NCBI GenBank assembly: GCA_964610305.1
Contig: CAZSVL010000002.1
Span: forward strand, 40,522-104,521
DNA: 64,000 nt
Direction: 5' to 3'
Origin: an uncultured Gammaproteobacteria bacterium
GTDB taxonomy: Bacteria > Patescibacteriota > Patescibacteriia > Magasanikbacterales > JBBTXJ01
The notes below the pieces were generated by a model. The model searched no databases, was not told the DNA's origin, and was given only the letters and a program-made list of their open reading frames with translations. Both the position numbers and the translations under genes were made by a program. Positions 12,300 through 53,985 of this stretch are shown here, piece by piece; the stretch's first letter is position 1; each line of letters opens with the position of its first letter.

Positions 12300-12363
12300 A
12301 GTAACAAGTAACAAAAAACGCACAGTGCGAAAAATTGTTACTTGTTACTTGTTACTTGTTAAT
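12300..12363. repeat. heptamer iteron region: AGTAACA x2, palindrome CGCACAGTGCG, then inverted TGTTACT x4
   Basis: Read directly. Shares the core CAAGTWACAAAAAAC with the 8116 copy. Confidence 0.7.
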
Positions 12364-12370
12364 TTATAAT
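12342..12370 (+). promoter_or_regulatory. promoter TTGTTA-17-TATAAT built from the inverted heptamers
   Basis: -10 TATAAT at 12365-12370. -35 TTGTTA at 12342-12347, which is the first inverted repeat. Confidence 0.5.
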
Positions 12371-12376
12371 AAGAGC

Positions 12377-13759: not shown

Positions 13760-14974
13760 ATGAAAATTCTAATTGTATCGCAAGAAATTGCCATTGATCA
13801 GCCCGGAGGCAGCGGTAGGGTGGCGTGGGAACAGGCCAGAGGTTTAGCGCAAGCTGGGCATACGGTTGTACTGTGCGCTCCTATGCCGCGAAAAGGCTTA
13901 AAGAAAACCCAGAAAAGAGATGGCGTTACTATTTTTAGATATGGGAACGTAAAGCGGCGTGGGGTTTTAGGAAGATCATTTGCTGATATTGTGGATACTC
14001 CTGCTTTTATAAAAAAGACGCTTGCCGGCGCAAAGTATGACAAAATTATTGCTCATCACCCTCATGTAGCTTACGGGCTCTTGCGCGTTTCTGCGGCCAG
14101 GGCAATTCCGCTTTTATACGTATTCCATGCTTCTGCGGCAGCTGAAATAAGATATGAAGGGCTCTCCAGAAAGTCGCTTAGTAAATGGAATGAGTGGCTA
14201 CTGCGACCGGTGTACGTGCGCTGGACAGCATGGATTGAGAGATCAGTGCTCAAAAGAGCAAGAGCGGTGGCTGTTTTTTCTCATTTTTCTGCAAAGCTGC
14301 TTGAGGATTTATATGGAAGATCGGTTAAAGGGAAAACGGTAACCCGTTTGGCCATGGGTGTTGACATGAAGCGCTTTTCTGCGGCAAAATCAAAAAATGC
14401 GGTTCGCAAGAAGTTAAAGATTGATCAGAATAAGCTTGTTTTTTTAAGCGTACGCAGGCTAGTACCGCGAACGGGCGTTCATGTACTCATTGAGAGTTTT
14501 AGAATAGCGTATGACAGGCTGGGGGAGGACATAGAGCTTGTTATTGTGGGAGAGGGAAGAGAGCAGAAGCGACTAGAGAGCCTGAGCCGTTCAATAGGCC
14601 TGCGGAAAGTGGTGCGTTTTGTGGGAAGATCAAGCGATGAGCAGCTACCACTGTGGTATCAGGCAGCGGATGTGCACGTGATACCAACGGTTGCATACGA
14701 GGGATTTGGTGTATCAACTATAGAGTCTATGAGCAGCGGGGTGCCGGTTATTGGCGTGCCAACGGGCGCCATACCAGAGGTGTTGCTGTCATTTGATGAG
14801 CGGCTGCTTGCCGATGCTGCAAAGCCGCTTCCGCTGGCAGAGCGTTTGGTGTGGTTTGCAGAGGAGGGTGTGGCTGAAAAGTGGCCTGATCGATGCCGAG
14901 CATTTGTAAAAAGATTTTATAGCTGGTCTAAGCATACAGCGCAAGTAGAGGGGGTTTTGAAAGAAATAAAATAA
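13760..14974 (+). CDS. GT4-family glycosyltransferase
   Basis: EGFGVSTIESMSSGVPVIGVPTGAIPEV is the GT4 E-x7-E region. Confidence 0.7.
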   Translation: MKILIVSQEIAIDQPGGSGRVAWEQARGLAQAGHTVVLCAPMPRKGLKKTQKRDGVTIFRYGNVKRRGVLGRSFADIVDTPAFIKKTLAGAKYDKIIAHHPHVAYGLLRVSAARAIPLLYVFHASAAAEIRYEGLSRKSLSKWNEWLLRPVYVRWTAWIERSVLKRARAVAVFSHFSAKLLEDLYGRSVKGKTVTRLAMGVDMKRFSAAKSKNAVRKKLKIDQNKLVFLSVRRLVPRTGVHVLIESFRIAYDRLGEDIELVIVGEGREQKRLESLSRSIGLRKVVRFVGRSSDEQLPLWYQAADVHVIPTVAYEGFGVSTIESMSSGVPVIGVPTGAIPEVLLSFDERLLADAAKPLPLAERLVWFAEEGVAEKWPDRCRAFVKRFYSWSKHTAQVEGVLKEIK

Positions 14975-14980
14975 GAAGCC

Positions 14981-17041
14981 ATGAGTCTAGCGGTACTTAA
15001 TTCCTATACGCCGCACATAGAGCGCCTTTTAAAGGGCGCGATTTTGATTAATTTGGCAACTCCGTTGATTGTTTTTTTTGATATTTTGCCGTATCCCTTT
15101 GTTACCTCTAAAGTATTTTTTTTGCAGATTCTTATTTCTTTGAGCGCCTTTTTTTATGGACTACTTCTTTTTTTAGAGCCTAAGAAGTATTGGCCGCGCG
15201 TTGGGCTCTTGCATGGCGCTGTTATTTTGTATGGATGTGTGATGCTGCTATCTACTCTCTTTAGTGTAGACTCGGCCAGATCCTTGTGGGCAAATCATAC
15301 GCGCATGCTGGGGAGTTTTGCGATGCTGCATTACGGTATTTTGTTTTGGATAGTGAGTGTGCTCTATGATGAGAAATTTTCTTCTCTTTTAAGGCGTGTG
15401 CTATTAGGGGTAATTTTTGCTGTTGGTGTTTTAGCGCTTTTGGAATGGGCTGGTGTTTTATTTCCCAATAGAGAGTGGCAGCGCATTGGCAGCACCGTGG
15501 GAAGCCCATTTGGCCTTTCTCTTTTAGCGCTTTATGGCGTGGCGCTCAGTATTTTAGAATTTTATAAGAAAAAGAGGTTGTTAGCAGCAGTGCTGAGCAT
15601 TTTTTTTATTGCTCTGGTGTTTTTGACCGGAACGCGAGGAGCTGTTGTTGCAATGGTTGGCGGCGCTTTGTTTGTTGGTTTAGTGTTGGTATTGAAAAAG
15701 TCGTTGTTGAATCTTTCGCAAAAAAAAGCCGCTTTGCTTGTCGGGGCAGTATCACTTCTGTTTGTGGTCGGTCTATTTGGTGGTGTTGCAGTCTCCAAGT
15801 TGCCTGCGTTTGATACGCTCAGTAGTGCCGCAAGCATTGGATCGCGCCTTACGGCATGGGATATATCTGTTAAGGCAGCACTAAGCAAGCCGCTCCTTGG
15901 CTACGGGCCGTTTACTTTTTTGTATGCCTTTAACGAGTTTTATGACCCCGCGGCAATTAGTTTTGCTTTTGATGAAACCTGGTTTGATAATGCCCACAAC
16001 TATTTTTTTGAGCAGCTTAGCAGCATGGGAATGGTAGGATTTTTTGTGTACATAGGCATTTTTGCGCTCGCCCTATTTTATTGTTGGCGATTAGCAAAAG
16101 ACGGCAGGCAATCTTTAGCTTTGGCCTATGCCACTATTGTGGTAATGCACGCGCTTTGGTTGGTTTTTGAGTTTGAAGAAGCCAGTTCACTACTTGTTTT
16201 TGTGATAATTCTAGGCCTTCTTGCCGCATCACAGAAAAAAATGTTATCTGAGAAAAAAGTATCAAAAGCGCTTCCTCTTGTTTTAATGGTTGCCGCTCTG
16301 CTTATGGGACGATCAAGCATACGATCAGTTCAAGCAGCTGCTGCGCACCAGCAGGCACTCAATTATGCGCGCAGCGGAGAGGTGGGGGGATGGTTTGAGG
16401 CGCAAAAAAAAGCGCTCAGCAGTGCCGGACCTTACGCTCACAGTATGAGGCTAGATATGGCGCGTGTATTTTCAGAATTTGAGCTTCCGCCAGACGCATC
16501 TTCTGTGCCGCTTGTTGATGCAGTATTTACTTTTATGCGCTCGCAAATGGCGTTGTCTCAAGAGGATCGCCCTTTGGATCCGTTTGCTTATCTTTTTGAT
16601 GCCGATATTGCCCGCAGAAGGTATACTATATTTAGGGCTACGGCCGATGCTGACAGGGCTCTGCAACTTTATGAAAAAGCGCAAGAAGTCGCGCCGCGTA
16701 GGCCACAGCTTTTCTTAAGTAGTGCCTTTGCCTCTATTGATTTTAAAGAGTTTGATGAGGCAAAAAAGGAAGCGTACGCAGCTTTAGCATTAGCTCCAGA
16801 AGATGAGCGTGTGGCTAAGTTGTTGGCAGATGTTCTAGTGGGGATTTATCAAGACGGTGAGGACAAGGCTCTCTTAGAAGAAGCGCTTGGTTTGTATGAG
16901 CGTGTTTCTATTAAACGTCCACCTGGAACGTACGATGCTTTGTACAAGAGTTGGTCAACGGCGCTGCAGCTAGCCGGACAGCCAGAAAAAGCAGCTGAAA
17001 TGTTAGGCAATATTGATAATGAAAATACTACTCGTCAATAA
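14981..17041 (+). CDS. O-antigen-ligase-like membrane protein with C-terminal TPR-like helical domain
   Basis: About 10 N-terminal TM helices with the Wzy_C block (FLTGTRGAVVAM), then a soluble C-terminal ~280-aa TPR-like repeat region. Confidence 0.6.
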   Translation: MSLAVLNSYTPHIERLLKGAILINLATPLIVFFDILPYPFVTSKVFFLQILISLSAFFYGLLLFLEPKKYWPRVGLLHGAVILYGCVMLLSTLFSVDSARSLWANHTRMLGSFAMLHYGILFWIVSVLYDEKFSSLLRRVLLGVIFAVGVLALLEWAGVLFPNREWQRIGSTVGSPFGLSLLALYGVALSILEFYKKKRLLAAVLSIFFIALVFLTGTRGAVVAMVGGALFVGLVLVLKKSLLNLSQKKAALLVGAVSLLFVVGLFGGVAVSKLPAFDTLSSAASIGSRLTAWDISVKAALSKPLLGYGPFTFLYAFNEFYDPAAISFAFDETWFDNAHNYFFEQLSSMGMVGFFVYIGIFALALFYCWRLAKDGRQSLALAYATIVVMHALWLVFEFEEASSLLVFVIILGLLAASQKKMLSEKKVSKALPLVLMVAALLMGRSSIRSVQAAAAHQQALNYARSGEVGGWFEAQKKALSSAGPYAHSMRLDMARVFSEFELPPDASSVPLVDAVFTFMRSQMALSQEDRPLDPFAYLFDADIARRRYTIFRATADADRALQLYEKAQEVAPRRPQLFLSSAFASIDFKEFDEAKKEAYAALALAPEDERVAKLLADVLVGIYQDGEDKALLEEALGLYERVSIKRPPGTYDALYKSWSTALQLAGQPEKAAEMLGNIDNENTTRQ

Positions 17042-19376
17042 ATTTTGGTATCCACGCGGCGGAGCCGAGCATTATGTTTTGGCGTTGCGTGAGCAGCTAA
17101 AAGCAAAAGGTCACACCGTGATTGAATTTGGGATGCATCATCATTTGAATATAAAAACGCCGTTTGATACATATTTTGTATCAGAATTGGATTTTAAAAA
17201 ACGCGGCGGGATAAAAGATAGTCTGCACAAGCTGATGCGGGTTATCTATTCTCCGCAAGCGCGCAAGAAGTTTGCTCAGCTTTTGGTAGATGAGGCGCCT
17301 GATGTTATTCATATTCATAACATTTATCACCAACTCTCTCCGTCAATTTTGCTTGCTGCTGAGCGTGCGCGGATTCCTGTTGTGATGACGGCCCATGATT
17401 ACAAGATTACCAATCCTAACTATAGAATGTTTCACCGTGGGCAGGTGTGTGAGCATAGTGATCATGGCAGATTTTGGGAGGCGCTCAGATATAGGTGCAT
17501 GGACACCTGGAGCGCCAGCTTTGCAGTTATGGTGGAGAGCTATGTGCATGCTTTTTTGGGTACGTACAGACGAGCCGTTACGCGTATTGTGAGCCCTAGC
17601 AATTTTTTGATTGATTTAGCGGTGAGTCGTGGCGCGCCCAGAAAATGGTTTATCAAAATTCCTACGGGCATTGCTATGCCCGCTATGCCAAAAGAGTTGG
17701 GGCAGCAGGCAGTAGTTTATTTTGGGAGACTCTCTGAAGAAAAAGGATTGGGCGTTTTGCTTGAGGCGGCTAAGATGGCTCGTACCACGCCATTTGTAAT
17801 TGTTGGCAGAGGGCCCATGGAAGCGGCTTTGAGATCTCGCGCGGGAGAGCTTGGATTGCGCAACGTTACTTTTGCGGGTTTTTTGCAGGGTGAGAGTCTG
17901 TGGAAAGTGGTGGCTGGCGCAAAAGCTGTGGTGGTGCCCACCCTTAGTTTTGAGAATTACCCATTGTCTGTGCTTGAGGCTCAGGCTTTGGGCACTATTG
18001 TTATAGCGAGTGCGGTAGGCGGTCTGCCAGAGCAAATAGTTAATGGGGAGACGGGTTTTTTGGTTCCTCCCGGAGATGCCGTAGAGCTAGCTAAAGCGGT
18101 GGAGCGCGCCATGGAAATGGATGAGGATGATCTAGCGCACATGGAGGCGGCAGCGAGAGCGGGAGTGATGCGCGTTAATGGTCATGACGAGCATATAAGC
18201 AGAATAGAGGCTTTATATAAGAGCGTGCAAGATACTGCTGCAGACGATGATAAATCCTTGCGCGTTGCTGTTATTGGGGCTAAAGGGTATCCACCGTCAT
18301 ATGGTGGCGTAGAACAGCACGTAGCGGCTCTAGGGCGCGTTTTTGCAGGGCTGGGGCACAAGGTGGTTATCTATAGTAGGTCATGGTATAGCCAAAAAAA
18401 TCAAAATGGCGATGATCCTGTAATAAGTCGCCGCCTCTGGAGCCCCAAGATAAATGGGCTGGATACACTTTATCATTCGTTTGCCAGTACGCTGTCGGCT
18501 TTGGTGGGAGATTATGATGTGGTGCATTTTCATGGAGTAGGCCCTGCTGTTTTTGCCTTTTTTGTGCGTTTGTTTTCAAAAGCTAAGGTGATAGTAACTG
18601 TTCATTCGCTTAACAGAATGCATCCTCAGTGGGGATTTTTTGCTCGGCTGTGGCTTCGTTTTGGAGAATGGGCCGCCGCAATATTTGCCCACGAGACTAT
18701 TGTTGTCTCCAGAGATTTAAGATCATATTTTAGAGGAAAACATAAAGCTGCCCGGATCCACTTTATTCCTAATGGCGTGGCGGTGAGAGAGAAAAAACCA
18801 GCGGCATCTTTGCTTGGTAGATGGGGCTTGCAGGAAGCTTCTTATGTTGTGGTGGTGGCGCGATTGGTAAAATCAAAACGTGTAGATGAAATTTTGCAGG
18901 CGTGGCGGTCCCTGCGAGCGGCAGATAGAAAGGATTGGAAGCTTGTCATTGTGGGAGATCAAAGTTTTTCATCTGATTATGTTGACGAGCTTAAAGATTT
19001 GGCGGGGAAAGATAAAAGTATTATTTTTACGGGCTGGCAGGAGGGCGAGGCACTGCAGGCCTTAATTGCTCATGCCCAAGCCTTGGTTTCTGCGAGCGCT
19101 TCTGAAGGGTTGCCTCTGACGCTGCTAGAAGCAAGTGCTTATGGGGTGGGCGCACTAGTCTCAGATATTGCTCCTCATAGAGAGATAGTTAAAGTAGACG
19201 CCGCGCGTTTTGCTGTGGGAGATGTGCCAGCGCTTGGCGCAGCCCTCAAACGGCTTTTAACTGACCCTGGATGGTTTGAGCAACTAGGAGAGCAAAATAA
19301 AAAACTCGTGGCGAGCGAGTATCAATGGGAGTCGGTAGCAGACAAAACGCTTAGTTTATACTATGATAGGCTTTAA
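17013..19376 (+). CDS. tandem two-domain GT4 glycosyltransferase (GT4-GT4 fusion)
   Basis: Two complete GT4 units (...ENYPLSVLEAQALGTIVIASAVGGLPE... and ...EGLPLTLLEASAYGVGALVSDIAPHRE...). Confidence 0.65.
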   Translation: MIMKILLVNKFWYPRGGAEHYVLALREQLKAKGHTVIEFGMHHHLNIKTPFDTYFVSELDFKKRGGIKDSLHKLMRVIYSPQARKKFAQLLVDEAPDVIHIHNIYHQLSPSILLAAERARIPVVMTAHDYKITNPNYRMFHRGQVCEHSDHGRFWEALRYRCMDTWSASFAVMVESYVHAFLGTYRRAVTRIVSPSNFLIDLAVSRGAPRKWFIKIPTGIAMPAMPKELGQQAVVYFGRLSEEKGLGVLLEAAKMARTTPFVIVGRGPMEAALRSRAGELGLRNVTFAGFLQGESLWKVVAGAKAVVVPTLSFENYPLSVLEAQALGTIVIASAVGGLPEQIVNGETGFLVPPGDAVELAKAVERAMEMDEDDLAHMEAAARAGVMRVNGHDEHISRIEALYKSVQDTAADDDKSLRVAVIGAKGYPPSYGGVEQHVAALGRVFAGLGHKVVIYSRSWYSQKNQNGDDPVISRRLWSPKINGLDTLYHSFASTLSALVGDYDVVHFHGVGPAVFAFFVRLFSKAKVIVTVHSLNRMHPQWGFFARLWLRFGEWAAAIFAHETIVVSRDLRSYFRGKHKAARIHFIPNGVAVREKKPAASLLGRWGLQEASYVVVVARLVKSKRVDEILQAWRSLRAADRKDWKLVIVGDQSFSSDYVDELKDLAGKDKSIIFTGWQEGEALQALIAHAQALVSASASEGLPLTLLEASAYGVGALVSDIAPHREIVKVDAARFAVGDVPALGAALKRLLTDPGWFEQLGEQNKKLVASEYQWESVADKTLSLYYDRL

Positions 19377-19675
19377 TCTTCTGGAGATTCAGAGAGGTCA
19401 TCTTCTTTCTTAGATTTTGCTGTTTTACTGCTTGGACTATAGAGTCTGCCGGCAATATTCCACCGGTCTACATACTGACCGATGCCTTTTTTTTGCGATT
19501 TTTTACTAATGGTGCTTTTTTGAGACCATTTAACAAGGCTTTCAAAGTTTATTTTGTATCGCCCCGCTACAACGATGTAGGAGAGCTCATCATCCAAAAT
19601 AGCACGTCTTATGGTTTGCTGACTCACTCCAAAGAGTTTTGCAGCTTCTGAGACTGATACGCGGATGATATTCAT
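19373..19675 (-). CDS. helix-turn-helix DNA-binding protein, excisionase/MerR-type HTH family
   Basis: VSEAAKLFGVSQQTIRRAILDDEL is a typical HTH_17/Xis-family motif. Basic C-terminal tail. Confidence 0.6.
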   Translation of the reverse strand: MNIIRVSVSEAAKLFGVSQQTIRRAILDDELSYIVVAGRYKINFESLVKWSQKSTISKKSQKKGIGQYVDRWNIAGRLYSPSSKTAKSKKEDDLSESPED

Positions 19676-19680
19676 AGCTG

Positions 19681-19704
19681 TTTGTATAGACTAGTGTATA
19701 CAAA
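19681..19704. promoter_or_regulatory. 24-bp near-palindromic operator TTTGTATA-N8-TATACAAA, copy 1, abutting the HTH gene start
   Basis: Read directly. It begins 6 nt upstream of the HTH ATG. Confidence 0.55.
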
Positions 19705-19793
19705 CAGCGTATATTACTAGCGTTTTTGTGTCAATTTGGACCATCAATGAATATTAGATTGAAACTGTGGATAAGTTGACCTAAATAGGCCTC

Positions 19794-19817
19794 TTTGTAT
19801 ACACTAGTCTATACAAA
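19794..19817. promoter_or_regulatory. second copy of the 24-bp operator, the exact reverse complement of copy 1
   Basis: TTTGTATACACTAGTCTATACAAA. The two copies are about 110 bp apart centre to centre. Confidence 0.55.
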
Positions 19818-19958
19818 TAGAGCTGGTAACAGGTAATGAGGGGGTGAGTATTAGTACATTTTCTTTTTTCTCTTGTTGCCCGTTATCGGGCACCTGTTTC
19901 CAATAAGTTATCCCCACCCGTTATCAAAAGCCGTGATTAGCTACAGCTATACCCAAGG

Positions 19959-20510
19959 ATGAAAAATAAGGCTCACGATCACTTGCTGCTTTTCAGGCTT
20001 CAGACCAAACAAGATAAACAAGCCTTTACGCAGCTCTACGATAAATACTACGCCGATATTCATCGGTTTGTTTTGTTTAAGGTGCCGACCGCAGAGATAG
20101 CCGACGATATAGTGGCGCAGGTGTTTGAAGGGCTTTGGATGTATGTGGTACAAAGAAAGCGTATCATTCACTTTAGGGCGCTGATGTATCGCATAGCAAG
20201 AAATAGCGTTGCTGAGCATTATCGCAGGGAAGGTAAAACTATGGATGTAGCCATAGAGTACGTGGAATTTGATGTAGCGCAGGATAATGACGGGTTGCTG
20301 GGAGTAGCGCGAGAAGATTTGTTGGCCGCGTTTGTGCAGCTTACCGAGGATCAAGCGGAGCTCATACAACTAAGATATATAGAAGGATTGCCCATAAAGG
20401 TGGTGGCAGAAGTAGTGGGAAAGAGCCGTGGCGCGGTGAGTGTTAGCTTGGGGAGGGCGCGGGCTAGTCTCAAACGCATTTTGGACGCAGATGTCCACAA
20501 GAAAAAATAA
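19959..20510 (+). CDS. ECF-type RNA polymerase sigma factor (sigma-70 regions 2 and 4)
   Basis: Region 2 (FTQLYDKYYADIHRFVLFKV...) and region 4 HTH (GLPIKVVAEVVGKSRGAVSVSLGRAR). Confidence 0.75.
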   Translation: MKNKAHDHLLLFRLQTKQDKQAFTQLYDKYYADIHRFVLFKVPTAEIADDIVAQVFEGLWMYVVQRKRIIHFRALMYRIARNSVAEHYRREGKTMDVAIEYVEFDVAQDNDGLLGVAREDLLAAFVQLTEDQAELIQLRYIEGLPIKVVAEVVGKSRGAVSVSLGRARASLKRILDADVHKKK

Positions 20511-20531
20511 CTATCGCAAGGTATACTGACT

Positions 20532-21539: not shown

Positions 21540-21561
21540 CCATACGTTTAGTTAATTATTA

Positions 21562-45006: not shown

Positions 45007-45819
45007 ATGAAGGCATTGAAGAATGAAAAATTAGGCGTCATGGGCGCTGGAATGGTAGGGGGAGCGGTTATTGGCTATCTGGATAGTGTAGGCGCAGATT
45101 TTGTTATATATGATCCCGCTAAGGGGCATACCGATGCGGAGCTGCTCAATGAGGCTAGCATTGTATTTTTATGTGTTCCAACACCTTTTGAGGAAGATGG
45201 TTCTGGATTTGATTTAAGCTATGTTCACAGCGCACTGAGTACTCTCAAGGGACGAAAAATTGTTGTTATTAAATCAACCGTTGTTCCAGGAACAACAGAG
45301 CAGCTTCAGGCGCATTATCCGCAGCACAGGATTATGTATAATCCTGAGTTTTTAACCGAGCTTACCACCGAGCAAGACTTTGCTTATCCGGATCGTCAGA
45401 TAATTGGATACACTAAGAGAAGTTTTGGTGTGGCTACGGATGTTATGCTACTGCTGCCATCAGCGCCTTTTGAGCGAGTTGTGCCGGCTACGGAAGCGGA
45501 GATGATAAAGTATTATGGTAATACGTGGTTTTCCGCTAAGGTGGTTTTTGCTAACCAAATGTATGATCTCTGTCAACGATTAAATGTAGATTATGATCTG
45601 GTAAAAGATGGTGTTGCGGCCGACAAGCGTATAGGAAGAACCCATCTGGATATTTTTCATCGCGGTTACAGAGGTTATGGCGGAAAGTGCCTTCCCAAGG
45701 ATACGCGCGCATTAATTCAATTGGGCGATCAATTGGGCATGTCTATGGATATGCTTAAAATGGTAGAGCATATAAACAACAAGATTAGAAAGCAGTCAGA
45801 TTTGGATTTAGATAGGTAG
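45007..45819 (+). CDS. UDP-glucose/GDP-mannose 6-dehydrogenase-family protein, truncated (lacks C-terminal nucleotide-sugar-binding domain)
   Basis: GAGMVGG Rossmann motif and the catalytic GGKCLPKD Cys motif at residue 228. The protein ends at 270 aa. Confidence 0.6.
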   Translation: MKALKNEKLGVMGAGMVGGAVIGYLDSVGADFVIYDPAKGHTDAELLNEASIVFLCVPTPFEEDGSGFDLSYVHSALSTLKGRKIVVIKSTVVPGTTEQLQAHYPQHRIMYNPEFLTELTTEQDFAYPDRQIIGYTKRSFGVATDVMLLLPSAPFERVVPATEAEMIKYYGNTWFSAKVVFANQMYDLCQRLNVDYDLVKDGVAADKRIGRTHLDIFHRGYRGYGGKCLPKDTRALIQLGDQLGMSMDMLKMVEHINNKIRKQSDLDLDR

Positions 45820-45820: not shown

Positions 45821-46243
45821 ATGTTTGTGTTGGACAAGAAACCGCCGCGCAACATGGAGGTGGAAAAAGTGGGATTTTTTATCTCTCTTTTTTTGTTTTT
45901 GAGTATTATTAATGTGATTTTCAGGTTGGGTGTTAGCGCCAGCAGTGTCAGACTCCCTGCTGGACTTTTTGTGGTGGCACTGCTCGTACTCTTAAGAAGT
46001 AGGTGGAATCGCAGGCATGCTATCTCACTTGCAGCGGGAATGAAGCGTTTTGGACAGCTTCTCAATGATATGGTGGTCGGTCTTGGTCTTTTTGTTGTTT
46101 ATGTGTGTGGAGTTGGCTTAACAGCATTGAGCGTGCGATTGATCAGAAAGCGTCTTTTGCCTGTCAGCAAGAAGGGCGATACGTATTGGCAACAACTGGA
46201 CTTAAGCAAGCAAGAGCGATCAGCATATCTTGATCAATTCTAA
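45821..46243 (+). CDS. small hypothetical membrane protein
   Basis: 2-3 TM helices, tightly packed between neighbours. Confidence 0.4.
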   Translation: MFVLDKKPPRNMEVEKVGFFISLFLFLSIINVIFRLGVSASSVRLPAGLFVVALLVLLRSRWNRRHAISLAAGMKRFGQLLNDMVVGLGLFVVYVCGVGLTALSVRLIRKRLLPVSKKGDTYWQQLDLSKQERSAYLDQF

Positions 46244-46244
46244 T

Positions 46245-47993
46245 ATGACAGTACTTGGAATATCTTGCTATTATCATGATTCTGCAGCAGCACTTATTGT
46301 AGATGGAAAGCTTGTTGCTTGCGCAGAGCAAGAGCGGTTTTCGCGAAAAAAGCATGATAGCGATTTTCCGCTAGATGCCATAACTTTTTGCCTGCAGAAG
46401 GCGGGCATTACAATTGATCAGGTAGATGCGGTAGCTTTTTACGAAAAACCACTTCTAAAATTTGAACGGCTTTTGTTTTCTCATATAGATGGATTTCCTA
46501 AGAGCCTCCCAACGTTTCTTAAGGCCATGCCGTCATGGCTTGGGACAAAATTAAGATTGCAATCAAAAATAAAAAGGACGCTTAAATACAGGGGGCCGGT
46601 ATATTATGTTCATCACCACATGGCGCATGCCGCAGCAGCTTTTTTGGTGAGCCCGTTTAAACAGGCAGCTGTCTGCACCAGCGACGGCGTGGGGGAGTGG
46701 ACCACCAATTCCCTTGGTCATGCATCAGAAAAAGAGATTACCCTTAAAAAAGAGATCCGATTTCCGCATTCTCTTGGCTTGCTCTATTCTACCGTCACGG
46801 CATATCTTGGTTTTTCAGTGAACAATTCAGAGTATAAGGTTATGGGTCTGTCACCTAATGGAGATCCAAGCGTATATAGGGAGCATTTTAAGCAGATAAT
46901 TGATGTAGCCGAGGACGGCAGTTACGCTTTTGACATGAGCTACTTTAATTTTCATGTGGGATCGCGTATGCCCTCCAGAAAGTTTTGCGATTTGTTTGGC
47001 GGGCCAGCACGCGATGCTGAATCGGAGTTGCTGCAACGTCATAAAGATATTGCCGCAGCACTGCAGGAGCGGGTTGAGGAAATACAGCTCATGCAGTTGC
47101 GCCACCTTTACAATATAACTAATTGTGAGAATTTAGTGATGGGCGGTGGTGTGGCTCTCAATAGCGTCTTCAATGGCAAGATTTTAAGCGAGACGCCTTT
47201 TTCTAAGGTATGGATACACCCCAATGCAACCGATGGTGGATCAAGTGTGGGGGCAGCTTTTTATGTTTATAACACTGTTTTTGACAATGAGCGGGATTAT
47301 GAATTTAACAACCCTTACCAAGGCCCTGCGTTTAGCGACAGGCAGATAAAGGGGTTTTTAGAAGAGCATGGTGTGGTGTATGATCAGTTTGAAAGTAAGG
47401 ATGCTTTAGTTGAGCGTACGGCAGAGCTCTTAGTTGAAAACAAGGTTATTGGTTGGTTTCAGGGCGGCATGGAGTGGGGGCCCAGAGCGCTGGGCGCGCG
47501 CAGTATTATCTCAAACGCAAGCAATCCAGATATGAAGGAGATACTCAACACAAAGGTTAAGCATAGGGAGCCTTTTAGACCATTTGCGCCGGTAGTGTGT
47601 GCAGAGGATGCTCCTGTGTATTTTGAGTGCGACGTGCCTGTGCCTGTGCCCGCAGATTACATGCTTATGGTCTATCCCATAAAAAAAGAGTTTCATGACA
47701 GCATACCTGCGGTAACGCATGTAGATGGAAGCGGGAGACTCCAGACGGTGCGCAGAGAGCAAAATGAACTTTATTACGATGTAATAAAGGCTTTTGGCAG
47801 ACTCAGTGGTATCCCCATACTGGTAAACACTTCTTTTAATATCAGAGGCGAGCCTATTGTGTGCTCGCCATTTGATGCATATCGTTGTATGATGGGCACG
47901 GGCATAGATTGTTTAATAATGGGATCATTTGTAATCTTCAGGGAAAATAATCCTCAACACATGTGGGATAGTGAGCAGCTTGCCATAGATTAA
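46245..47993 (+). CDS. NodU/CmcH-family carbamoyltransferase
   Basis: N-terminus MTVLGISCYYHDSAAALIVDGKLVACAEQERFSRKKHD is the carbamoyltransferase N-domain. Length about 580 aa. Confidence 0.75.
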   Translation: MTVLGISCYYHDSAAALIVDGKLVACAEQERFSRKKHDSDFPLDAITFCLQKAGITIDQVDAVAFYEKPLLKFERLLFSHIDGFPKSLPTFLKAMPSWLGTKLRLQSKIKRTLKYRGPVYYVHHHMAHAAAAFLVSPFKQAAVCTSDGVGEWTTNSLGHASEKEITLKKEIRFPHSLGLLYSTVTAYLGFSVNNSEYKVMGLSPNGDPSVYREHFKQIIDVAEDGSYAFDMSYFNFHVGSRMPSRKFCDLFGGPARDAESELLQRHKDIAAALQERVEEIQLMQLRHLYNITNCENLVMGGGVALNSVFNGKILSETPFSKVWIHPNATDGGSSVGAAFYVYNTVFDNERDYEFNNPYQGPAFSDRQIKGFLEEHGVVYDQFESKDALVERTAELLVENKVIGWFQGGMEWGPRALGARSIISNASNPDMKEILNTKVKHREPFRPFAPVVCAEDAPVYFECDVPVPVPADYMLMVYPIKKEFHDSIPAVTHVDGSGRLQTVRREQNELYYDVIKAFGRLSGIPILVNTSFNIRGEPIVCSPFDAYRCMMGTGIDCLIMGSFVIFRENNPQHMWDSEQLAID

Positions 47994-47994: not shown

Positions 47995-49572
47995 ATGAAA
48001 TTACTAAGGAGCATTACCAGATATCAGCTCAGCATTGCTGGGCTGTTTGTAATGGCGCTTTTTTTGCTTCTCTTTAGGTTGGACATGCGTTCTTTTTGGA
48101 CGGATGAGTGGTATTCGTTTAGGTTTTTTGACATGAGTTTATTTGAGTATTTAAAGTATTATTGGCAACATCCTGATAATCATCCGCCTGGTTTTTATGC
48201 CATTACCACGTCTTTTGTTAATTTCTTTGGAAGATCAGATGTTGTAGTTAGGCTGCCAGCTGTTATAGGTGGTTTGTGGGCCTTTGTGGCGAGCGCTTTT
48301 CTTATTAAAGAGACGGTGGTTAAGAATAGGAGGGGTATTATGCTGCTCTCGTTGCTGCTTATAGCAACCGCTCCTTACTTGATTCTAATAGGACAGACGG
48401 CGCGTTATTTTACCCTTGCGGCAGGCGCTGGACTTTCAGTGCTATATGCAATGCTTAGATTAATAAAGAAGCCCAGCATAGCCAGAGGATTGTGGTACGC
48501 TTTTGCGCTTGTTGTTGTGGGTTACCTTGATTACCCAACTCTTTTTTACAGTGTTTGTGGGAGTGGGGCGGTCATAGCACTTCATTATTTTCGCAATCGA
48601 CAAAAGCGGGCAGTTTATACGTGGCTTGGGTCTGGCCTTCTTGCTGGTTTAGTAGTTTCCCCGCTTGTTCCTATTTTGCTCGCGGAGATCAGGGCAGAAT
48701 CTTTATCTGGCCCTGATGTGCTCTCTGGCGGTCTTATGGCGTGGGGCATGCGCGTGCTGTCTTACGGGTATGCTCTTAGTCACGGCATGATAAGCTTGCC
48801 CTTTGGTATTGTTACCGTGTTGTGGCTCGTCTTATTTGCTATACTGGGATTTATTTTTCTTAAAAGGCGAAGGGCGGCAATTCCTCGGTTAGCAGAGCTT
48901 GATTATGTAATAGTCTACGGAGCTGTGGGGCTCATCTTAAATACGCTCCTTTTTGCTGCGCTTGAGAGATATAGCCCTATAGCATTTCCGCGTTATGTGC
49001 TTTTGTCGCTTTATCTGCTGTTTATAGTACTTTCTGCCTTCATAATGCGGCTTTCTGCATCAAGGCATATCAAGGCCGTTCTAGCGGGTCTTTTAGTGGC
49101 AATTCACGTTTTTGGACTAAGCGCTTATTACAGCAGATCTCATTTTGTGGACGCAACTTTTTTTGCCGACAATAGGGGTATGTTCGCTTTCGTAAAAGAA
49201 AACGCGCAGGAGGGCGATGCCCTTTTGCTTTCTGATGATTTGCCGGAAGAGATTTATCGGTGGTATAAGGAGCGCTATTTTGAGGGTCTGGTTACCTATG
49301 ATGGTAAGATAGAGACGCCGGCCGATAGGATTTGGGTGGTGGCGATGGCACATGATTATGCGGCAGGCAGTTGGGGGTCTGACTTGTTTGTTCATGAACT
49401 TGTGGATCGTCTTGGGAGCACTCAATGGCACATAAGCAAAAGTAGATACGGTTCACCTCTTCATGATGAAGTGGTCGCTATAAAAAGCGGTGTTACAGGC
49501 GTTCAAAGTTATCTGTATAAGGTGGGAGCCTTTTTAGTGGAAAAGCGTGTTGAGCCGTTGCCAGAGCTGTGA
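47995..49572 (+). CDS. GT-C fold glycosyltransferase (ArnT/PMT-like, GT39/GT83-type), polytopic membrane protein
   Basis: Many TM helices. First periplasmic loop has the DE motif (FWTDEWYSF) typical of ArnT/PMT enzymes. Confidence 0.55.
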   Translation: MKLLRSITRYQLSIAGLFVMALFLLLFRLDMRSFWTDEWYSFRFFDMSLFEYLKYYWQHPDNHPPGFYAITTSFVNFFGRSDVVVRLPAVIGGLWAFVASAFLIKETVVKNRRGIMLLSLLLIATAPYLILIGQTARYFTLAAGAGLSVLYAMLRLIKKPSIARGLWYAFALVVVGYLDYPTLFYSVCGSGAVIALHYFRNRQKRAVYTWLGSGLLAGLVVSPLVPILLAEIRAESLSGPDVLSGGLMAWGMRVLSYGYALSHGMISLPFGIVTVLWLVLFAILGFIFLKRRRAAIPRLAELDYVIVYGAVGLILNTLLFAALERYSPIAFPRYVLLSLYLLFIVLSAFIMRLSASRHIKAVLAGLLVAIHVFGLSAYYSRSHFVDATFFADNRGMFAFVKENAQEGDALLLSDDLPEEIYRWYKERYFEGLVTYDGKIETPADRIWVVAMAHDYAAGSWGSDLFVHELVDRLGSTQWHISKSRYGSPLHDEVVAIKSGVTGVQSYLYKVGAFLVEKRVEPLPEL

Positions 49573-49797: not shown

Positions 49798-50502
49798 CTA
49801 GCGCTCCAGCCAAAGATCAGCGCCCACACGGAGACCTTCAAGCATCATGGCTTTAGTCATTTTTGATGAGCCGGCCGTGCGATCCGCAAAGGTGATAGGA
49901 ATTTCTTTGAAGCGCGCTCCGCATTTCATAGCTCTGAATTTCATTTCAATTTGAAATCCATAGCCATCAGCCTTGATGGTGTTTTTTAAAATGCATTCTA
50001 AAAGGTCTCTTTTGTAACCAACAAATCCAGCAGTCGCATCTTTAGTTGGCAGTCCAGTTGCCGCTCGGGCATAGAGGTTTGCCGCCTTTGATAAGAGGAG
50101 GCGGTAAGAAGAGAACTCAGTAACGTTTCCACCGGGGACATAACGTGAACCAATGACCACATCATGGTTTGATAGAGCACTGATCATTGAGGATAAATAA
50201 CGTGGATGGTGAGATAAATCCGCATCCATTTGAACGATAGCGCTAATTTGTGAATCTGCTAGCACTTTTATAAATCCATCAATATATGACTGACCGAAGC
50301 TTTTAGGTTTTTGCCGCTTAAGTAGCTCTACAGCATTGTTTTTTTGTTGGTAGGATTCAACGGTCGTCGCGGTTCCGTCTGGCGATCCGTCGTCAACAAC
50401 TAAGACGTTTATGTCAGAATTCGCATATTGAAATATAGTATCCAATGTTTTTTCAATGGTGAGGGCTTCGTTGTACGTTGGTATTATAATGGTAGTTTTC
50501 AT
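49798..50502 (-). CDS. GT2 polyprenyl-phosphate glycosyltransferase (Dpm1/ArnC-like)
   Basis: IIIPTYNEALTI...LVVDDGSPDGT...QMDADLSH is the Dpm1-type DxD GT2. Confidence 0.75.
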   Translation of the reverse strand: MKTTIIIPTYNEALTIEKTLDTIFQYANSDINVLVVDDGSPDGTATTVESYQQKNNAVELLKRQKPKSFGQSYIDGFIKVLADSQISAIVQMDADLSHHPRYLSSMISALSNHDVVIGSRYVPGGNVTEFSSYRLLLSKAANLYARAATGLPTKDATAGFVGYKRDLLECILKNTIKADGYGFQIEMKFRAMKCGARFKEIPITFADRTAGSSKMTKAMMLEGLRVGADLWLER

Positions 50503-51950
50503 CGGCCCATGGCTTTTGCAATAATGTGGACGGTTTTAAGCACGATAACAATGTCCATCAGAAGGGATCGGTATTTCATATAGTATAGATCATATTCCAG
50601 TTTCACCAGATTTTCTTCTAGTGTTGCGCCGTAGCGGTAGCTTACTTGTGCCCAGCCGGTAAGACCGGGGCGAATAAGATGTCTAATACTATAGTAGGGC
50701 ATGCGTGATTGCAGTTGATCAACAAACGCAGCGCGCTCAGGTCTCGGGCCAATAAGATTCATTTCTCTTTTCAGGATATTCCATGATTGAGGAAGCTCAT
50801 CAATTCTGAGTTTTCTTAGCCATTTACCCACTTTGGTTATGCGCGTGTCATTAGCACTGGCAAATTGTGGGCCGCTCTCTTCTGCCAGCCCATCTTTACC
50901 TTTTGCATACATGGTTCTGAGTTTGTAAATGGTGAACGGCTTATTATGCAGGCCAACGCGTTTTTGTTTGATAAAAAGAGGTCTGCCTGATTCTGCTAAA
51001 ATAGCGATCGCCACAAAGGGAAGCAAAATGAGTAGTAGTAGGCCGAGCGCTATGGCAAAGCCAACGTCTGCAACCGTGCGCAGCGCATCGTAATATTGCT
51101 TTCGGCTTTCCCGCAAGTTTTGCCAAAACCAGCTCTCGTTTACCATATCGGCATTTACCCGGCCGGTTATGTGTTCATAAAAAGTAGCTAAATCTGCCAT
51201 TTCCACGCGCCAGAAAAGTAACTCATAGAGTTCTTTTTCTAGCTCTCCTGCGCGCGCAAGGTGAGGAGCGATTACCACGGTGTGGATTTCTTTGATGTCT
51301 ACTACTGATCTAATGCGCATGGGGTCCGAGAAAAGCTGCACGCTAGAGCTGATGTGGTGGGGAATAAGGTGCTGCTCTGGTTCCATGATTGCAGCCGTAG
51401 TAAAACCAAGCTGAGGATCTTTTGCAAATGAGGTGACAAGGTCCTCAACACGCGGATGAAATCCTAAAAATAGGATGGTGCGACGCAATAGTTTTGGACC
51501 AAGTGAGTGATTAAAAAGGGCGCGCCAAAGGGAAATCAGTACTATGCTAAGCAGTACCGTTAGTACTAAATTGGTTTTTGGCGTGATTCTAAAGGCGGGA
51601 ACAAAGTAAAAGAACATGAGCCCCACAAAAAAGTTTGCGATGAAGCTAATGAGAAGATTTTGGAAAAAACGAATTGAATTTTTTGCCTTCCTAATATCGT
51701 AGAGGCCATTGATAAAAAAGATTATAACCCACAGAGCAAAAACGATCCCAAAGGCAACTCGGTGCGTACTCCAATAGGGGCCAATGTCAAGCGTTTTGTA
51801 GCGAATCATAAGAGCCACAAGAAGCGCTCCTTGCATGAGCAATAGATCGGCAGCGGCTAGAATAATTTGTTTAAACTTTATGACCCGGTTATTCATAGAT
51901 GCCTTGAGCTTATCAAAAAGAGGGGTTTTTTTCAAGATAGACCCTTGCAC
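50499..51950 (-). CDS. initiating polyprenyl-phosphate sugar-1-phosphate transferase (WbaP/CpsE Bac_transf family)
   Basis: C-terminal Bac_transf domain (PLFIKQKRVGLHNKPFTIYKLRTM...DELPQSWNILKREMNLIGPRPE...GLTGWAQV). Confidence 0.8.
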   Translation of the reverse strand: MQGSILKKTPLFDKLKASMNNRVIKFKQIILAAADLLLMQGALLVALMIRYKTLDIGPYWSTHRVAFGIVFALWVIIFFINGLYDIRKAKNSIRFFQNLLISFIANFFVGLMFFYFVPAFRITPKTNLVLTVLLSIVLISLWRALFNHSLGPKLLRRTILFLGFHPRVEDLVTSFAKDPQLGFTTAAIMEPEQHLIPHHISSSVQLFSDPMRIRSVVDIKEIHTVVIAPHLARAGELEKELYELLFWRVEMADLATFYEHITGRVNADMVNESWFWQNLRESRKQYYDALRTVADVGFAIALGLLLLILLPFVAIAILAESGRPLFIKQKRVGLHNKPFTIYKLRTMYAKGKDGLAEESGPQFASANDTRITKVGKWLRKLRIDELPQSWNILKREMNLIGPRPERAAFVDQLQSRMPYYSIRHLIRPGLTGWAQVSYRYGATLEENLVKLEYDLYYMKYRSLLMDIVIVLKTVHIIAKAMGR

Positions 51951-51984
51951 AGGAGCGAGGTGGCTGATATAGTTGATCTATTCT

Positions 51985-53985
51985 ATGTTTAAAAGCAGTA
52001 TTACAGTGGCAGCAGGGCGTTTCTTGGCGCTCGCTTTTTTAATAGGAAGTCTGGTGGCAACACCGGTTTTTGCTAAGCTGCCAAATGATCCCTATACTTT
52101 GGGTTCGTGGTTTTTTGATATTATCAATGCAAAGGAGGCGTGGGATCTTCAGACAAGTGCGCGCGATATTGTGGTGGCGGTGATTGATGGGCCGGTAGAC
52201 ACTAACCATCCAGAGCTAAAGAATAATCTATGGAGCAATCCTGCAGAGCGCAAAGACGGCGTGGATAACGATGGCAACGGGAAGACTGATGATGTTATAG
52301 GGTGGGATTTTATACATATGGATGGAGACCCTTCTCCTCAAATGGAGGGCGCGCGTGATACACTGGCGTTTCATCATGGGACAACCGTTGCGGGGATTAT
52401 TGGGGCAGAGGGGAATAATAAAACGGCGGTATCAGGCATGGCCTGGGATGTAAAAATAATGCCACTTCAGGTATTAGATGAAGATGGGAGCGGTTTGGTT
52501 GATCATGTGGTTCAAGCGGTAGAATACGCCATAGAGCAGAAGGTGGATATCATAAATTTGAGTTTTGTGGGTGATGATTATGATCATGATTTTTATAAAG
52601 TGGTAAAGCGAGCTTACCATGAGGGAATTGTGGTGGTTGCCGCTTCTGGCAACGATGGCAATGGAAAAGGCGGAGGAAACTTGAATTTTAAGAGGCGCTA
52701 CCCGGTGTGTTTGGATAGCGATGAGCAAGTACCCTTTTTACTTGGTGTAGCTTCTACTGATAAGAGGGATGAGCCCTCTATTTTCACCAATCATGGTAGT
52801 GGATGCATAGATATCTCTGCGCCCGGTTCTGGCATAACAAGCTTGTCAGTTCATGATCCAAGCAACGGTTTTCCCTCTCAAATACTAACGGGAATTTCTG
52901 GTACCTCTATAGCGGCACCGTTTGTCTCAGGAGTTGCTGCGCTCATAAAACAGCGCCATCCTGATATGAGCGCTGGATCAATTATTGATGTTATAAAGAG
53001 ATCTGCAGATGATATTGATGATAAATCAGATTTGGCGCGTGGTGCAATGGGCGCTGGAAGATTAAACGCCCAGAACGCATTAAAGTTAGCGGCGCAGGAT
53101 CGTGGTGGGCATGGGGCAGAATTTGTAGTGATGTTTGATGGTGGTCAGTGGACCAATGTGAGGCATTTTGCTCATGATTATAAAAAGATAACGCAGTTTA
53201 TTACTCCAGTGCCGTTTGCAGATATCATCACACTGGAGATTATTGATATCAACAGAGATGGCGTGCAGGAGGTAGTTTACGCTTACGCGAGTGATGAAGG
53301 TACGCGTTTGGTAGCGTATTCATTGGAGGGTTACAAAATTTTTGAATCGGTTATTTCTGCCGAAGTGGTAAGAACGGTAGGCTTAGCAGGAGCAGATGTG
53401 CTGCGCAATGGGGACGGTGGTGTTGTGGTGGGATTTCCTTCTGAGGGTCAATTCAAGATAGTAGAGTATAAGGCTGATGGAGATATTTTTCACTGGTTTA
53501 TTGGTGGGGAACTAGAGAGCGATCTAGAATCTGTTTCAGTTTCTTTTTCTGATACGGGATTTATTTATGGTCTAGCACACTACGGAACTCATACCGTTCG
53601 GTCAACATGGAATTTTATAGGCGCATTTGATAAATCAAAACGTTTTGATGTGCCTGATGGAAATGCACGCCCTATTGCGGGCAATGGTAACGGTAGTGTT
53701 TTGGCATACGGAGCCGCCAAGGAGCGCTCTTCAGCGGTGACCGTTATTAAAGAAGGAGAAGCTGCGGCAACCACTTTTTCACCGTATGGCAGTTTTTTGG
53801 GCGGTAGTTCAGTTACCCTTATTGATTGGGATGTAGATGGTCAGGAGGAAGTTGTTGTGGGGGCTGGGCCAGGCGGAGGACCTCATGTTAAAATATTTTC
53901 TTTGGAGGGTGAGCTAGAGGGAGAGTTTCTAGCGCATGGACCGCAATATCATCACGGAATTTTTGCCCGCGCCTTTTTAAAGTAG
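51985..53985 (+). CDS. secreted subtilisin-like serine protease (S8) with C-terminal FG-GAP/VCBS-like repeats
   Basis: Catalytic D, H and S blocks (VAVIDGPVDTNHPEL; HHGTTVAGII; GTSIAAPFVSGVAALI). Signal peptide present. Confidence 0.8.
   Translation: MFKSSITVAAGRFLALAFLIGSLVATPVFAKLPNDPYTLGSWFFDIINAKEAWDLQTSARDIVVAVIDGPVDTNHPELKNNLWSNPAERKDGVDNDGNGKTDDVIGWDFIHMDGDPSPQMEGARDTLAFHHGTTVAGIIGAEGNNKTAVSGMAWDVKIMPLQVLDEDGSGLVDHVVQAVEYAIEQKVDIINLSFVGDDYDHDFYKVVKRAYHEGIVVVAASGNDGNGKGGGNLNFKRRYPVCLDSDEQVPFLLGVASTDKRDEPSIFTNHGSGCIDISAPGSGITSLSVHDPSNGFPSQILTGISGTSIAAPFVSGVAALIKQRHPDMSAGSIIDVIKRSADDIDDKSDLARGAMGAGRLNAQNALKLAAQDRGGHGAEFVVMFDGGQWTNVRHFAHDYKKITQFITPVPFADIITLEIIDINRDGVQEVVYAYASDEGTRLVAYSLEGYKIFESVISAEVVRTVGLAGADVLRNGDGGVVVGFPSEGQFKIVEYKADGDIFHWFIGGELESDLESVSVSFSDTGFIYGLAHYGTHTVRSTWNFIGAFDKSKRFDVPDGNARPIAGNGNGSVLAYGAAKERSSAVTVIKEGEAAATTFSPYGSFLGGSSVTLIDWDVDGQEEVVVGAGPGGGPHVKIFSLEGELEGEFLAHGPQYHHGIFARAFLK

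Follow-up and report, generated by a model that had tools for sequence, protein, structure and literature searches.

An O-oligosaccharyltransferase of the dedicated kind often has its gene next to that of its substrate (PMC12645811). Among Wzy_C enzymes, WsfB carries a C-terminal tetratricopeptide repeat (TPR) domain, and PglL is reported to have a C-terminal TPR motif; WsaB is TPR-less, and the TPR protein WsaA is encoded alongside it (PMC2943079). In the same work, WsaE is described as combining two rhamnosyltransferase activities with a methyltransferase and WsaP as a WbaP-like initiator, the surface-layer (S-layer) genes sgsE and spaA appear in the slg gene-cluster figures, one transferase is named per cluster, and Geobacillus stearothermophilus exports its glycan by a Wzm/Wzt ABC transporter (PMC2943079). 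Here we analyze a stretch of 64,000 nt (positions 40,522–104,521 of the forward strand of contig CAZSVL010000002.1, assembly GCA_964610305.1; hereafter the window), in which four proteins, W2 to W5, join a Wzy_C membrane domain to a C-terminal TPR-like domain. Our main new result is a conserved cassette to which such enzymes belong, consisting of an extracytoplasmic function (ECF) sigma factor, a DUF5667 protein, a protein of ∼1250 aa and the Wzy_C-TPR enzyme. We estimate a probability of about one half that W2–W5 are outer-face transferases which use glycans linked to undecaprenyl pyrophosphate to glycosylate the 1256-aa protein of the window's cassette, as in S-layer glycosylation clusters.

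The open reading frames (ORFs) of the window were listed and then scanned with Pfam (ORFs of at least 120 aa) and NCBIfam. An earlier note on this DNA had called five O-antigen-ligase-like Wzy_C paralogs with C-terminal TPR-like domains, three of them in tandem. All five ORFs were found at the coordinates it gave, differing in start codon only, and each matches PF04932 (Wzy_C) with 46.5–78.2 bits against a gathering cut-off of 31.7 (E 4e-12 to 7e-22). W1 (12335/12377–13753; 472 aa; Wzy_C E 4.3e-12) and W2 (14981–17041; 686 aa; Wzy_C E 3e-17, TPR_19 E 4.7e-5) are followed at a distance by the tandem trio W3 (29753/29777–32038; Wzy_C E 4e-21), W4 (32080–34392) and W5 (34346/34382–36703; Wzy_C E 5.2e-18, weak TPR_1/TPR_16). 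All are on the plus strand, and the trio is tightly packed, with a 41-bp gap between W3 and W4 and a 47-bp overlap between W4 and W5.

These five proteins are two different things, a division that the earlier note had missed. W2–W5 align with one another over their full length at 24–29% identity, and they score 609–811 bits (W2, 609; W3, 719) over both the membrane and C-terminal parts of a hidden Markov model (HMM) built from them and their homologues. W1 yields only marginal local matches to W2–W5, to which it is distantly related, and aligns to the family HMM in the catalytic region alone, where the Arg/Arg/His positions are kept. It has no TPR and no C-terminal extension, and the call of TPR-like domains stands for W2–W5 but not for W1. 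Possibly together with a weak Wzz-like protein of the window (described below), W1 may be a conventional polymerase or ligase.

To describe the W2–W5 family, W4 was modelled by AlphaFold2 with a 19-sequence alignment. The model (predicted local distance difference test score, pLDDT, 86.8; predicted template modelling score 0.86) has 13 transmembrane (TM) helices and a helical solenoid, arranged as nine TM helices, a loop of ∼80 residues (287–366), four TM helices and the solenoid (504–761). Its membrane half has the fold of WaaL at an identity of just 16–17%. Similarly, a profile of the family's membrane half hits WaaL (7tpg, E 4e-13) and 9rmk (E 4e-10), a chain of 610 aa deposited under the name ‘Oligosaccharyltransferase’; in both hits the catalytic Arg-Arg-His line up, and the family's TRG, RLxxW and AHN motifs fall on the counterpart motifs of both structures. 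In W4 numbering, R239, R314 and H365, as well as R106, W360 and D362, do not vary among the 19 sequences of the alignment, which include W2–W5. R300 is nearly invariant, W2 carrying Thr at this position. W2, W3 and W5 align to the modelled W4 from end to end. By the model and the alignment, W2–W5 have the WaaL fold and keep intact the site for a donor linked to polyprenyl pyrophosphate, which would be a glycan on undecaprenyl pyrophosphate. The earlier note had named generic transporters as the identity that would overturn its assignment; for the membrane cores, that identity is ruled out by the WaaL fold and the catalytic Arg-Arg-His.

The charges of the loops suggest how the enzymes lie in the membrane. 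When the helices of the model are mapped onto the alignment, the density of Lys plus Arg is 0.21 in the predicted cytoplasmic loops, as against 0.06 in the short loops of the outer side, and the pattern holds for each of W2–W5. For a protein of 13 TM helices that starts on the inner side, it would put both the catalytic loop and the TPR domain outside; we thus infer from the positive-inside rule that both face outward, the 13th helix carrying the solenoid to a place next to the catalytic loop. The earlier note had asked whether the C-terminal domains are predicted to be periplasmic. In the W4 model the C-terminal domain is a helix-turn-helix solenoid of the TPR type, and it matches the TPR domains of OGT and SPY by Foldseek and by profile. 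The family profile hits TPR proteins with E-values down to 4e-77, a figure driven mostly by homologues with clear TPRs: many homologues give clear Pfam TPR hits, and the window proteins' own sequence matches are below threshold or nil, their repeats being degenerate.

The family is large. An exhaustive comparison of the W4 membrane half with 1.84 billion cluster representatives (clusters at 50% identity) returned 835 at E≤1e-30 and 3443 at E≤1e-10. Nearly all of the best 150 representatives are 650–800 aa long and therefore have the C-terminal extension, and the named homologues of W4 come from Taylorbacteria and other Patescibacteria. Thus the Wzy_C-TPR family is widespread in Patescibacteria and uncharacterized; our literature searches found no paper describing either the family or the cassette.

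For synteny we assembled 82 distinct related loci, searched the window proteins against all their ORFs and iterated with HMMs. Relatives had been found by scanning one genome per species with two peptide patterns, which gave 196 confirmed relatives, 80 of which were kept. Most of the 82 loci carry one Wzy_C-TPR gene and about 20 carry two. Tandem pairs recur across the group; a tandem of three was observed in the window and L002, the locus nearest to it, alone. The earlier note's description of the region as exceptionally dense is accurate only relative to these relatives.

In a rough neighbour-joining tree of 105 family members, computed without support values, W3, W4 and W5 each pair one-to-one with their own L002 ortholog. 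The two copies of the L005/L010/L012 lineage fall with W4 and W5, respectively, and W2 is a lone deep branch. In the two-copy loci of Magasanikbacteria, the upstream copy lies in clades apart from the downstream, near-universal copy. Recent duplication is excluded by the 24–29% identity among the paralogs together with the separate ortholog of each. The duplications are thus old and have been kept, and paralogs that are old and separately conserved fit distinct specificities. An opposite view, in which the extra copies are redundant or decaying, a single enzyme works and copy number means nothing, could draw on the single copy of most relatives and on W3, which at 44% identity has diverged most from its L002 ortholog (W4, 62%; W5, 65%). 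We regard it as very unlikely. W2–W5 are intact full-length ORFs (609–811 bits) that keep every invariant catalytic residue, the Thr of W2 at R300 being the sole change, and the one-to-one orthologs of W3–W5 in L002, with those of W4 and W5 also in more distant two-copy lineages, speak for long retention.

The genes upstream of the trio define the cassette. Its first gene encodes an ECF sigma factor (19959–20510, plus strand; Sigma70_r2/r4 and Sigma70_ECF, with TIGR02937 above cut-off), which has a homologue at the same position in 34 related loci. It is followed by a single-pass, anti-sigma-like DUF5667 protein (20532–21539, plus strand; DUF5667 E 4.2e-7; TM residues 65–94) with homologues in 36 loci, and by the 1256-aa protein (21759–25529, plus strand), homologues of which occur in about 40. 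The order is invariably sigma factor, DUF5667 protein, large protein and one or two Wzy_C-TPR genes, all on a single strand. Counting the 63 of 82 loci whose sequence reaches 4.5 kb or more ahead of the enzyme gene, a large-protein homologue lies upstream in 39 and is adjacent, ending no more than 1.5 kb from the enzyme gene, in 31. The window keeps this order, with three enzyme copies and two lineage-specific inserts ahead of W3: a secreted protein of 726 aa rich in Cys, Glu, Gly and Asp (25818–27998, plus strand; no Pfam match) and a 558-aa PEGA-domain protein with a C-terminal TM segment (28043–29719, plus strand; PEGA E 1.4e-4). Among relatives, these two proteins occur in L002 only, where the Cys-rich protein is likewise kept between the large protein and the enzyme genes. 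The earlier note had treated 12335–53985 as a continuous glycan locus and had missed this interruption; ∼10 kb of it (19959–29719) is the regulator and surface-protein block, and its last gene encodes an S8 subtilase.

The 1256-aa protein is secreted, acidic and rich in Ser and Thr, is built of multiple β-sandwiches and has no Pfam match. Its AlphaFold model (pLDDT 74) shows an N-terminal signal helix, an α/β domain at residues 37–255 and about seven β-sandwich domains strung like beads, with several disordered Ser/Thr-rich loops; disordered loops lie, for instance, at residues 259–271, 548–555 and 884–891. Ser plus Thr make up 21% of the protein, which has 155 Asp plus Glu against 78 Lys plus Arg, and two Cys. 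Members of its family share a Sec-type signal peptide whose AxA site is conserved, and their mean Ser plus Thr content is 22.1%, compared with 11.6±3.3% for other ORFs of at least 300 aa in the same loci, which puts them near the 99th percentile among neighbouring ORFs. Such traits are compatible with an abundant glycoprotein of the surface, or an S-layer-like one; they are not proof of it. The conserved place of the enzymes downstream of a secreted Ser/Thr-rich protein lends independent support to protein O-glycosylation.

The same protein supplies the strongest rival explanation. Residues 37–255 are its best-conserved part, with invariant aromatic residues F73, W82, F87, Y125, W150 and Y166; the domain recurs, ∼50% identical, in further proteins that bear Big_1 domains and, as a weaker match (47% over 8% of the query), in one protein that bears PG_binding_1. 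An aromatic-rich N-terminal domain shared with other surface proteins fits a wall-anchoring module. The large protein might then bind a glycopolymer through this domain without being glycosylated, and W2–W5 would be polymerases or ligases for that polymer, wall-linked or lipid-anchored in the manner of Gram-positive secondary cell-wall polymers. Wzy_C is common to polymerases, ligases and oligosaccharyltransferases and does not discriminate among them (PMC12645811), a polymerase and a ligase could account for two or three paralogs, and the window holds a weak Wzz/CpsC-like protein. That protein (7345–8010, plus strand; 221 aa with two TM segments; Pfam Wzz E 0.003; TIGR01006 E 2.4e-6, below cut-off) has no homologue among the 82 related loci, however, so that a co-polymerase is no conserved partner of the family. 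Additionally, no LCP-type wall ligase turned up in the Pfam scans of the window, and the Ser/Thr content of the large protein is about twice the local average. An extracytoplasmic TPR is a protein-binding module and has been reported in the O-oligosaccharyltransferases WsfB and PglL (PMC2943079). We consider the wall-polymer explanation possible, though on present evidence it is the less probable one.

If glycosylation of the 1256-aa protein is indeed the role of W2–W5, the route would be the following. The WbaP-like initiator would prime polyprenyl phosphate, and nine glycosyltransferase (GT) domains would lengthen the glycan, whose sugars would include L-fucose (from Gmd-Fcl) and which would bear O-methyl and O-carbamoyl decorations. 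A flippase encoded outside the window would carry the glycan across the membrane, and the Wzy_C-TPR enzymes would transfer it at the outer face. The acceptor would most likely be a protein, with the 1256-aa protein as the prime candidate and the TPR domain holding it. Each of the three tandem copies would have its own specificity for donor or acceptor; alternatively, the trio might be split between polymerization and final transfer. The earlier note had proposed distinct specificities, with protein O-glycosylation as one example. The conservation of the paralogs and the synteny of the cassette support this in part, and it stays unproven.

Several observations weigh against this reading. Computation does not separate an oligosaccharyltransferase from a polymerase or ligase, and Wzy_C-type domains alone cannot separate an O-oligosaccharyltransferase from WaaL (PMC12645811). 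Neither PglL_A nor Wzy_C_2 was reported for W1–W5 by Pfam at E≤0.01. Glycan genes beside a surface protein could equally be there because the glycan anchors that protein to the wall. By Foldseek, the large protein finds only generic matches (MG/Ig-like domains, integrins, cohesins, pilins and Gram-positive adhesins), no known S-layer protein is found among its fold matches or PDB sequence matches, its family profile gives no hit among PDB sequences, and it shows neither a known S-layer fold nor an anchoring domain such as SLH or CWB2. In 24 of the 63 loci no large-protein homologue was detectable upstream, and one single-copy subclade lacks the large protein altogether and sits amid unrelated MurG and permease genes; the linkage is therefore frequent and not universal. 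Terminator-like hairpins with T-runs lie after the Cys-rich gene (28005–28030) and between the PEGA gene and W3 (29726–29750), so that co-transcription of the enzyme trio with the surface protein is not assured, and W3–W5 may, as the DNA reads, form a separate or attenuated transcription unit. Lastly, no Wzx/MOP (Polysacc_synt) flippase and no ABC-2/Wzt exporter was found among the scanned window ORFs, a point the earlier note had also missed. Thus, of the three parts of a Wzx/Wzy pathway (initiator, Wzx and Wzy_C in one locus), the window has the initiator and Wzy_C. The missing flippase or exporter in 64 kb is a gap in both the transferase model and the polymerase/ligase model. In related loci, which favour the transferase reading on this point, the multi-TM neighbours (n = 55) include 16 Wzx-type flippases, 10 PMT_2 GT-C enzymes and 5 ABC-2 permeases, and Wzx often lies just downstream of the Wzy_C-TPR gene, as in L023 (11335–12798) and L081 (12392–13858).

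The identity of the host bears on a further possibility, namely that W2–W5 are classical O-antigen ligases or polymerases of a lipopolysaccharide (LPS) pathway. The source organism is recorded as an uncultured Gammaproteobacteria bacterium, and its GTDB lineage is Patescibacteriota; Patescibacteriia; Magasanikbacterales; JBBTXJ01. Labels of the 80 kept relatives are Magasanikbacteria, Patescibacteria, Paceibacteria, Parcubacteria or Nomurabacteria, apart from one Candidatus Udaeobacter, three named just ‘bacterium’ and 33 labelled ‘uncultured Gammaproteobacteria’ that stem from one assembly project. Records of that third-party project (L011, L013, L014, L017, L018 and others) carry the cassette, and their enzymes interleave in the tree with Patescibacteria-labelled ones, so the label ‘Gammaproteobacteria’ looks wrong. 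The best named relative of the 1256-aa protein, at 58% identity, is from Candidatus Uhrbacteria. Taken by the names of its relatives, on which the assignment depends, the window host is a Patescibacteria (candidate phyla radiation, CPR) genome whose closest relatives are labelled Uhrbacteria and Magasanikbacteria.

Patescibacteria are regarded as lacking an outer membrane, LPS and lipid A, which makes the role of a classical O-antigen ligase unlikely. The Wzy_C match and WaaL fold would suit such a role, and a WbaP-like initiator with many glycosyltransferases resembles an O-antigen cluster. Yet the close relatives are all Patescibacteria, Pfam scans of the 64-kb window gave no lipid A or core genes, and WaaL itself has 12 TM helices and no TPR and shares just 16–17% identity with W4. 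We consider an LPS role highly improbable. The earlier note's preference for functions other than a single O-antigen is supported by relatives that are almost entirely Patescibacteria.

A bolder proposal joins these elements: the 1256-aa protein would be a major S-layer-like glycoprotein of CPR bacteria of the Magasanikbacteria/Uhrbacteria type, the Wzy_C-TPR enzymes its dedicated O-oligosaccharyltransferases, the unit would be under control of the autoregulated ECF/anti-sigma pair, and the paralogs with fast-diverging glycosyltransferases would form a glycan-diversifying cassette on a conserved scaffold. We offer this combination as speculative and, taken whole, rather doubtful. Bearing on its last part, the gene of the 1256-aa protein (21759–25529, against 2–3691 of L002) is 90% identical in protein and 84.7% in DNA. 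Its neighbours, except Gmd-Fcl (86%), are 44–68% identical in protein and ∼64–70% in DNA; two GT fusions, at 62% and 68%, are among them. The difference between 90% and 44–68% points to either a recent exchange of the large-protein gene or unusually fast divergence of the glycan genes. If the proposal is true, such diversification would parallel O-antigen variation and would bear on how these episymbionts attach to hosts or evade phages.

Upstream of the ECF sigma gene, a conserved ECF-type promoter-like motif, TGTAAC-N16-CGTCT, starts 31 or 32 nt before an ATG in 24 of the 34 loci with this gene, for example at L014 2981–3013, L043 3515–3547 and L081 3972–4004. In five further loci the motif lies up to 28 nt past the first in-frame ATG, and another ATG follows ∼7 nt after it. 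Both strands of 1.48 Mb hold 34 occurrences, all but about three of which are at the ECF-gene position. From the −10 element to the start codon there are ∼7 nt, a spacing that points to a leaderless transcript under autoregulation. No exact match was found upstream of the window's own ECF gene (19376–19959). Nor does the motif appear again ahead of the large-protein or enzyme genes, and control of those genes by the ECF factor is thus unsupported except by read-through.

On the plus strand, the gene order of the window begins with the Wzz/CpsC-like protein, three small or Cys-rich secreted proteins, W1, GT4, W2 and GT4-GT4. After a 582-bp gap come the ECF sigma factor, the DUF5667 protein, the 1256-aa protein, the Cys-rich protein, the PEGA protein and W3-W4-W5, and these are followed by GT2-GT4, GT4-GT4-methyltransferase, Gmd-Fcl, a GT1-like protein, a nucleotide-sugar dehydrogenase, a 140-aa membrane protein, a carbamoyltransferase and a 525-aa protein. 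From W3 through the 525-aa protein, every junction overlaps or has a gap of no more than 41 bp. The secreted proteins at 10341–12239 and 25818–27998 are both very rich in Cys, Asp, Glu and Gly, with (GE)n runs, and their genes are the only G+C-rich stretches of the window (0.53–0.56, compared with ∼0.45); the protein at 10341–12239 has thrombospondin type-3 and MopE-like motifs.

The earlier note had counted about 10 glycosyltransferase domains. There are nine GT-A/GT-B domains in six proteins. Near W2 are a GT4 enzyme (13760–14974, plus strand; Glycos_transf_1 E 2.3e-32, Glyco_transf_4) and a 787-aa double GT4 fusion (17013–19376, plus strand; two stretches each of Glycos_transf_1 and Glyco_transf_4). 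Downstream of the trio lies a GT2-GT4 fusion (36735–38735, plus strand; Glycos_transf_2, Glycos_transf_1), which is kept downstream of the enzyme genes in L002, L005/L006, L010 and L012, and a 1068-aa GT4-GT4-methyltransferase fusion (38684–41890, plus strand; two GT4 units, with Methyltransf_11 at residues 869–965), kept in L002, L006, L010 and L012. The remaining two are a GT1/GT4-like enzyme (43854–44990, plus strand; Glycos_transf_1 E 7.2e-11) and a small GT2 (49798–50502, minus strand; Glycos_transf_2 E 1e-27), a candidate polyprenyl-phosphate sugar synthase whose best NCBIfam similarities, to AglJ, dolichyl-P hexose transferase and ArnC, are all below cut-offs.

Other glycan genes that the earlier note had named, namely the Gmd-Fcl fusion, the carbamoyltransferase, the methyltransferase domain and the WbaP-like initiator, are recovered by Pfam or NCBIfam, and the inventory of that note is in the main correct. 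The Gmd-Fcl fusion, for GDP-L-fucose synthesis (41894–43918, plus strand), passes both NCBIfam equivalog cut-offs (TIGR01472 gmd, 569.5 bits against 415; NF047922 Fcl, 502.9 against 500). A homologue of this GDP-mannose dehydratase, typically a Gmd of ∼340 aa, is present in 61 of the 82 related loci, and in the example loci examined it lies directly downstream of the enzyme gene. The carbamoyltransferase is of NodU/CmcH type (46230–47993, plus strand; Carbam_trans_N E 1e-77, Carbam_trans_C E 4e-68). The initiator is a polyprenyl glycosylphosphotransferase similar to WbaP/WcaJ (50499–51950, minus strand; Bac_transf E 2.9e-55; TIGR03025, 323.5 bits against 295.55). A UDP-glucose/GDP-mannose dehydrogenase-like gene (45007–45819, plus strand; 270 aa) encodes UDPG_MGDP_dh_N and the central domain only, without the C-terminal UDP-binding domain, and its TIGR03026 score of 161.7 bits is below the cut-off of 189.8; the next ORF is the unrelated 140-aa membrane protein. 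This dehydrogenase gene may be truncated or non-functional. For the 525-aa protein (47995–49572, plus strand), which had been called a GT-C enzyme, we find nine hydrophobic segments, or about nine TM segments, and a C-terminal soluble domain. Even at E 10 it matches nothing in Pfam, and its sole hit is sub-threshold (TIGR03663 Agl23, E 1e-6, 28 bits against 126); a GT-C-like nature is possible, the identity not being confirmed.

Directly after the glycan genes, at 51973–55496, come the S8 subtilase (51973–53985, with which the region closes), a protein of 316 aa that has a hydrophobic N-terminal segment but matches no family, and a type I signal peptidase. The three may process secreted surface proteins. 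Four consecutive genes on the minus strand (55816–60085) encode proteins of 445, 309, 310 and 351 aa, each with an N-terminal hydrophobic segment (signal peptide or anchor) and without a convincing Pfam match, the sole hit being at E 0.0055 and below cut-off. In the 445- and 309-aa proteins there is, in addition, a TM segment at the C-terminus, and the 310- and 351-aa proteins are rich in Thr, Ser and Asp and mutually alike; the four may make up a further surface structure. An NAD-dependent epimerase/dehydratase and a GT2 are encoded at 62121–63946, beyond the region, and surface-glycan genes thus run on to the window end.

Cells of CPR/Patescibacteria are tiny, mostly uncultured and thought to be host-attached, and their surface makeup is largely unknown. 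The locus is a copy-number-expanded instance of a widespread, uncharacterized cassette of this group and puts names to candidate components: a widespread secreted surface protein, an enzyme family for its glycosylation or for a wall polymer, a GDP-fucose pathway and a dedicated regulator. It also cautions against taking annotations of ‘O-antigen ligase’ in these genomes as a sign of LPS. Should the enzymes be oligosaccharyltransferases, they would be a new TPR-guided class, possibly useful in glycoengineering.

Several known systems invite comparison with the family. WaaL of Cupriavidus metallidurans (PDB 7TPG/7TPJ) shares the membrane fold, and W4 differs from it by a 13th TM helix and a TPR solenoid of ∼280 aa, predicted to be extracytoplasmic; the WaaL acceptor, lipid A-core, is not known to be made by the Patescibacteria host group. 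Wzy polymerases likewise act at the outer face on a donor of this lipid-linked kind, some belong to PF04932, and Wzx proteins are common neighbours in related loci. No solved polymerase is among the sequence or fold matches, though, and a Wzz-type partner is not conserved with the family. Polymerases are not known to need a TPR domain. The likeness to the TPR-bearing protein glycosyltransferases OGT, SPINDLY and eukaryotic TMTC is one of TPRs by analogy only, their catalytic domains being unrelated; by that analogy, the TPR domain of W2–W5 would select a protein acceptor.

The PglL, PglS and TfpO (PilO) classes share the Wzy_C domain with the window family. They are enzymes of Gram-negative bacteria, and no pilin gene lies next to the window enzymes. 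The PglL/PglS marker domains PglL_A and Wzy_C_2 were not found in W1–W5, which thus lack the domain co-occurrence used to recognize those classes (PMC12645811). The slg clusters of Paenibacillus alvei and G. stearothermophilus have window counterparts in the Wzy_C-TPR enzymes, the GT4-GT4-methyltransferase fusion, the Bac_transf initiator and an adjacent surface protein, for which S-layer formation is putative. The likeness to WsfB and WsaB is drawn from published descriptions rather than sequences. Where the slg clusters and the window differ is in the three or four transferase copies of the latter and in its ECF sigma/anti-sigma pair.

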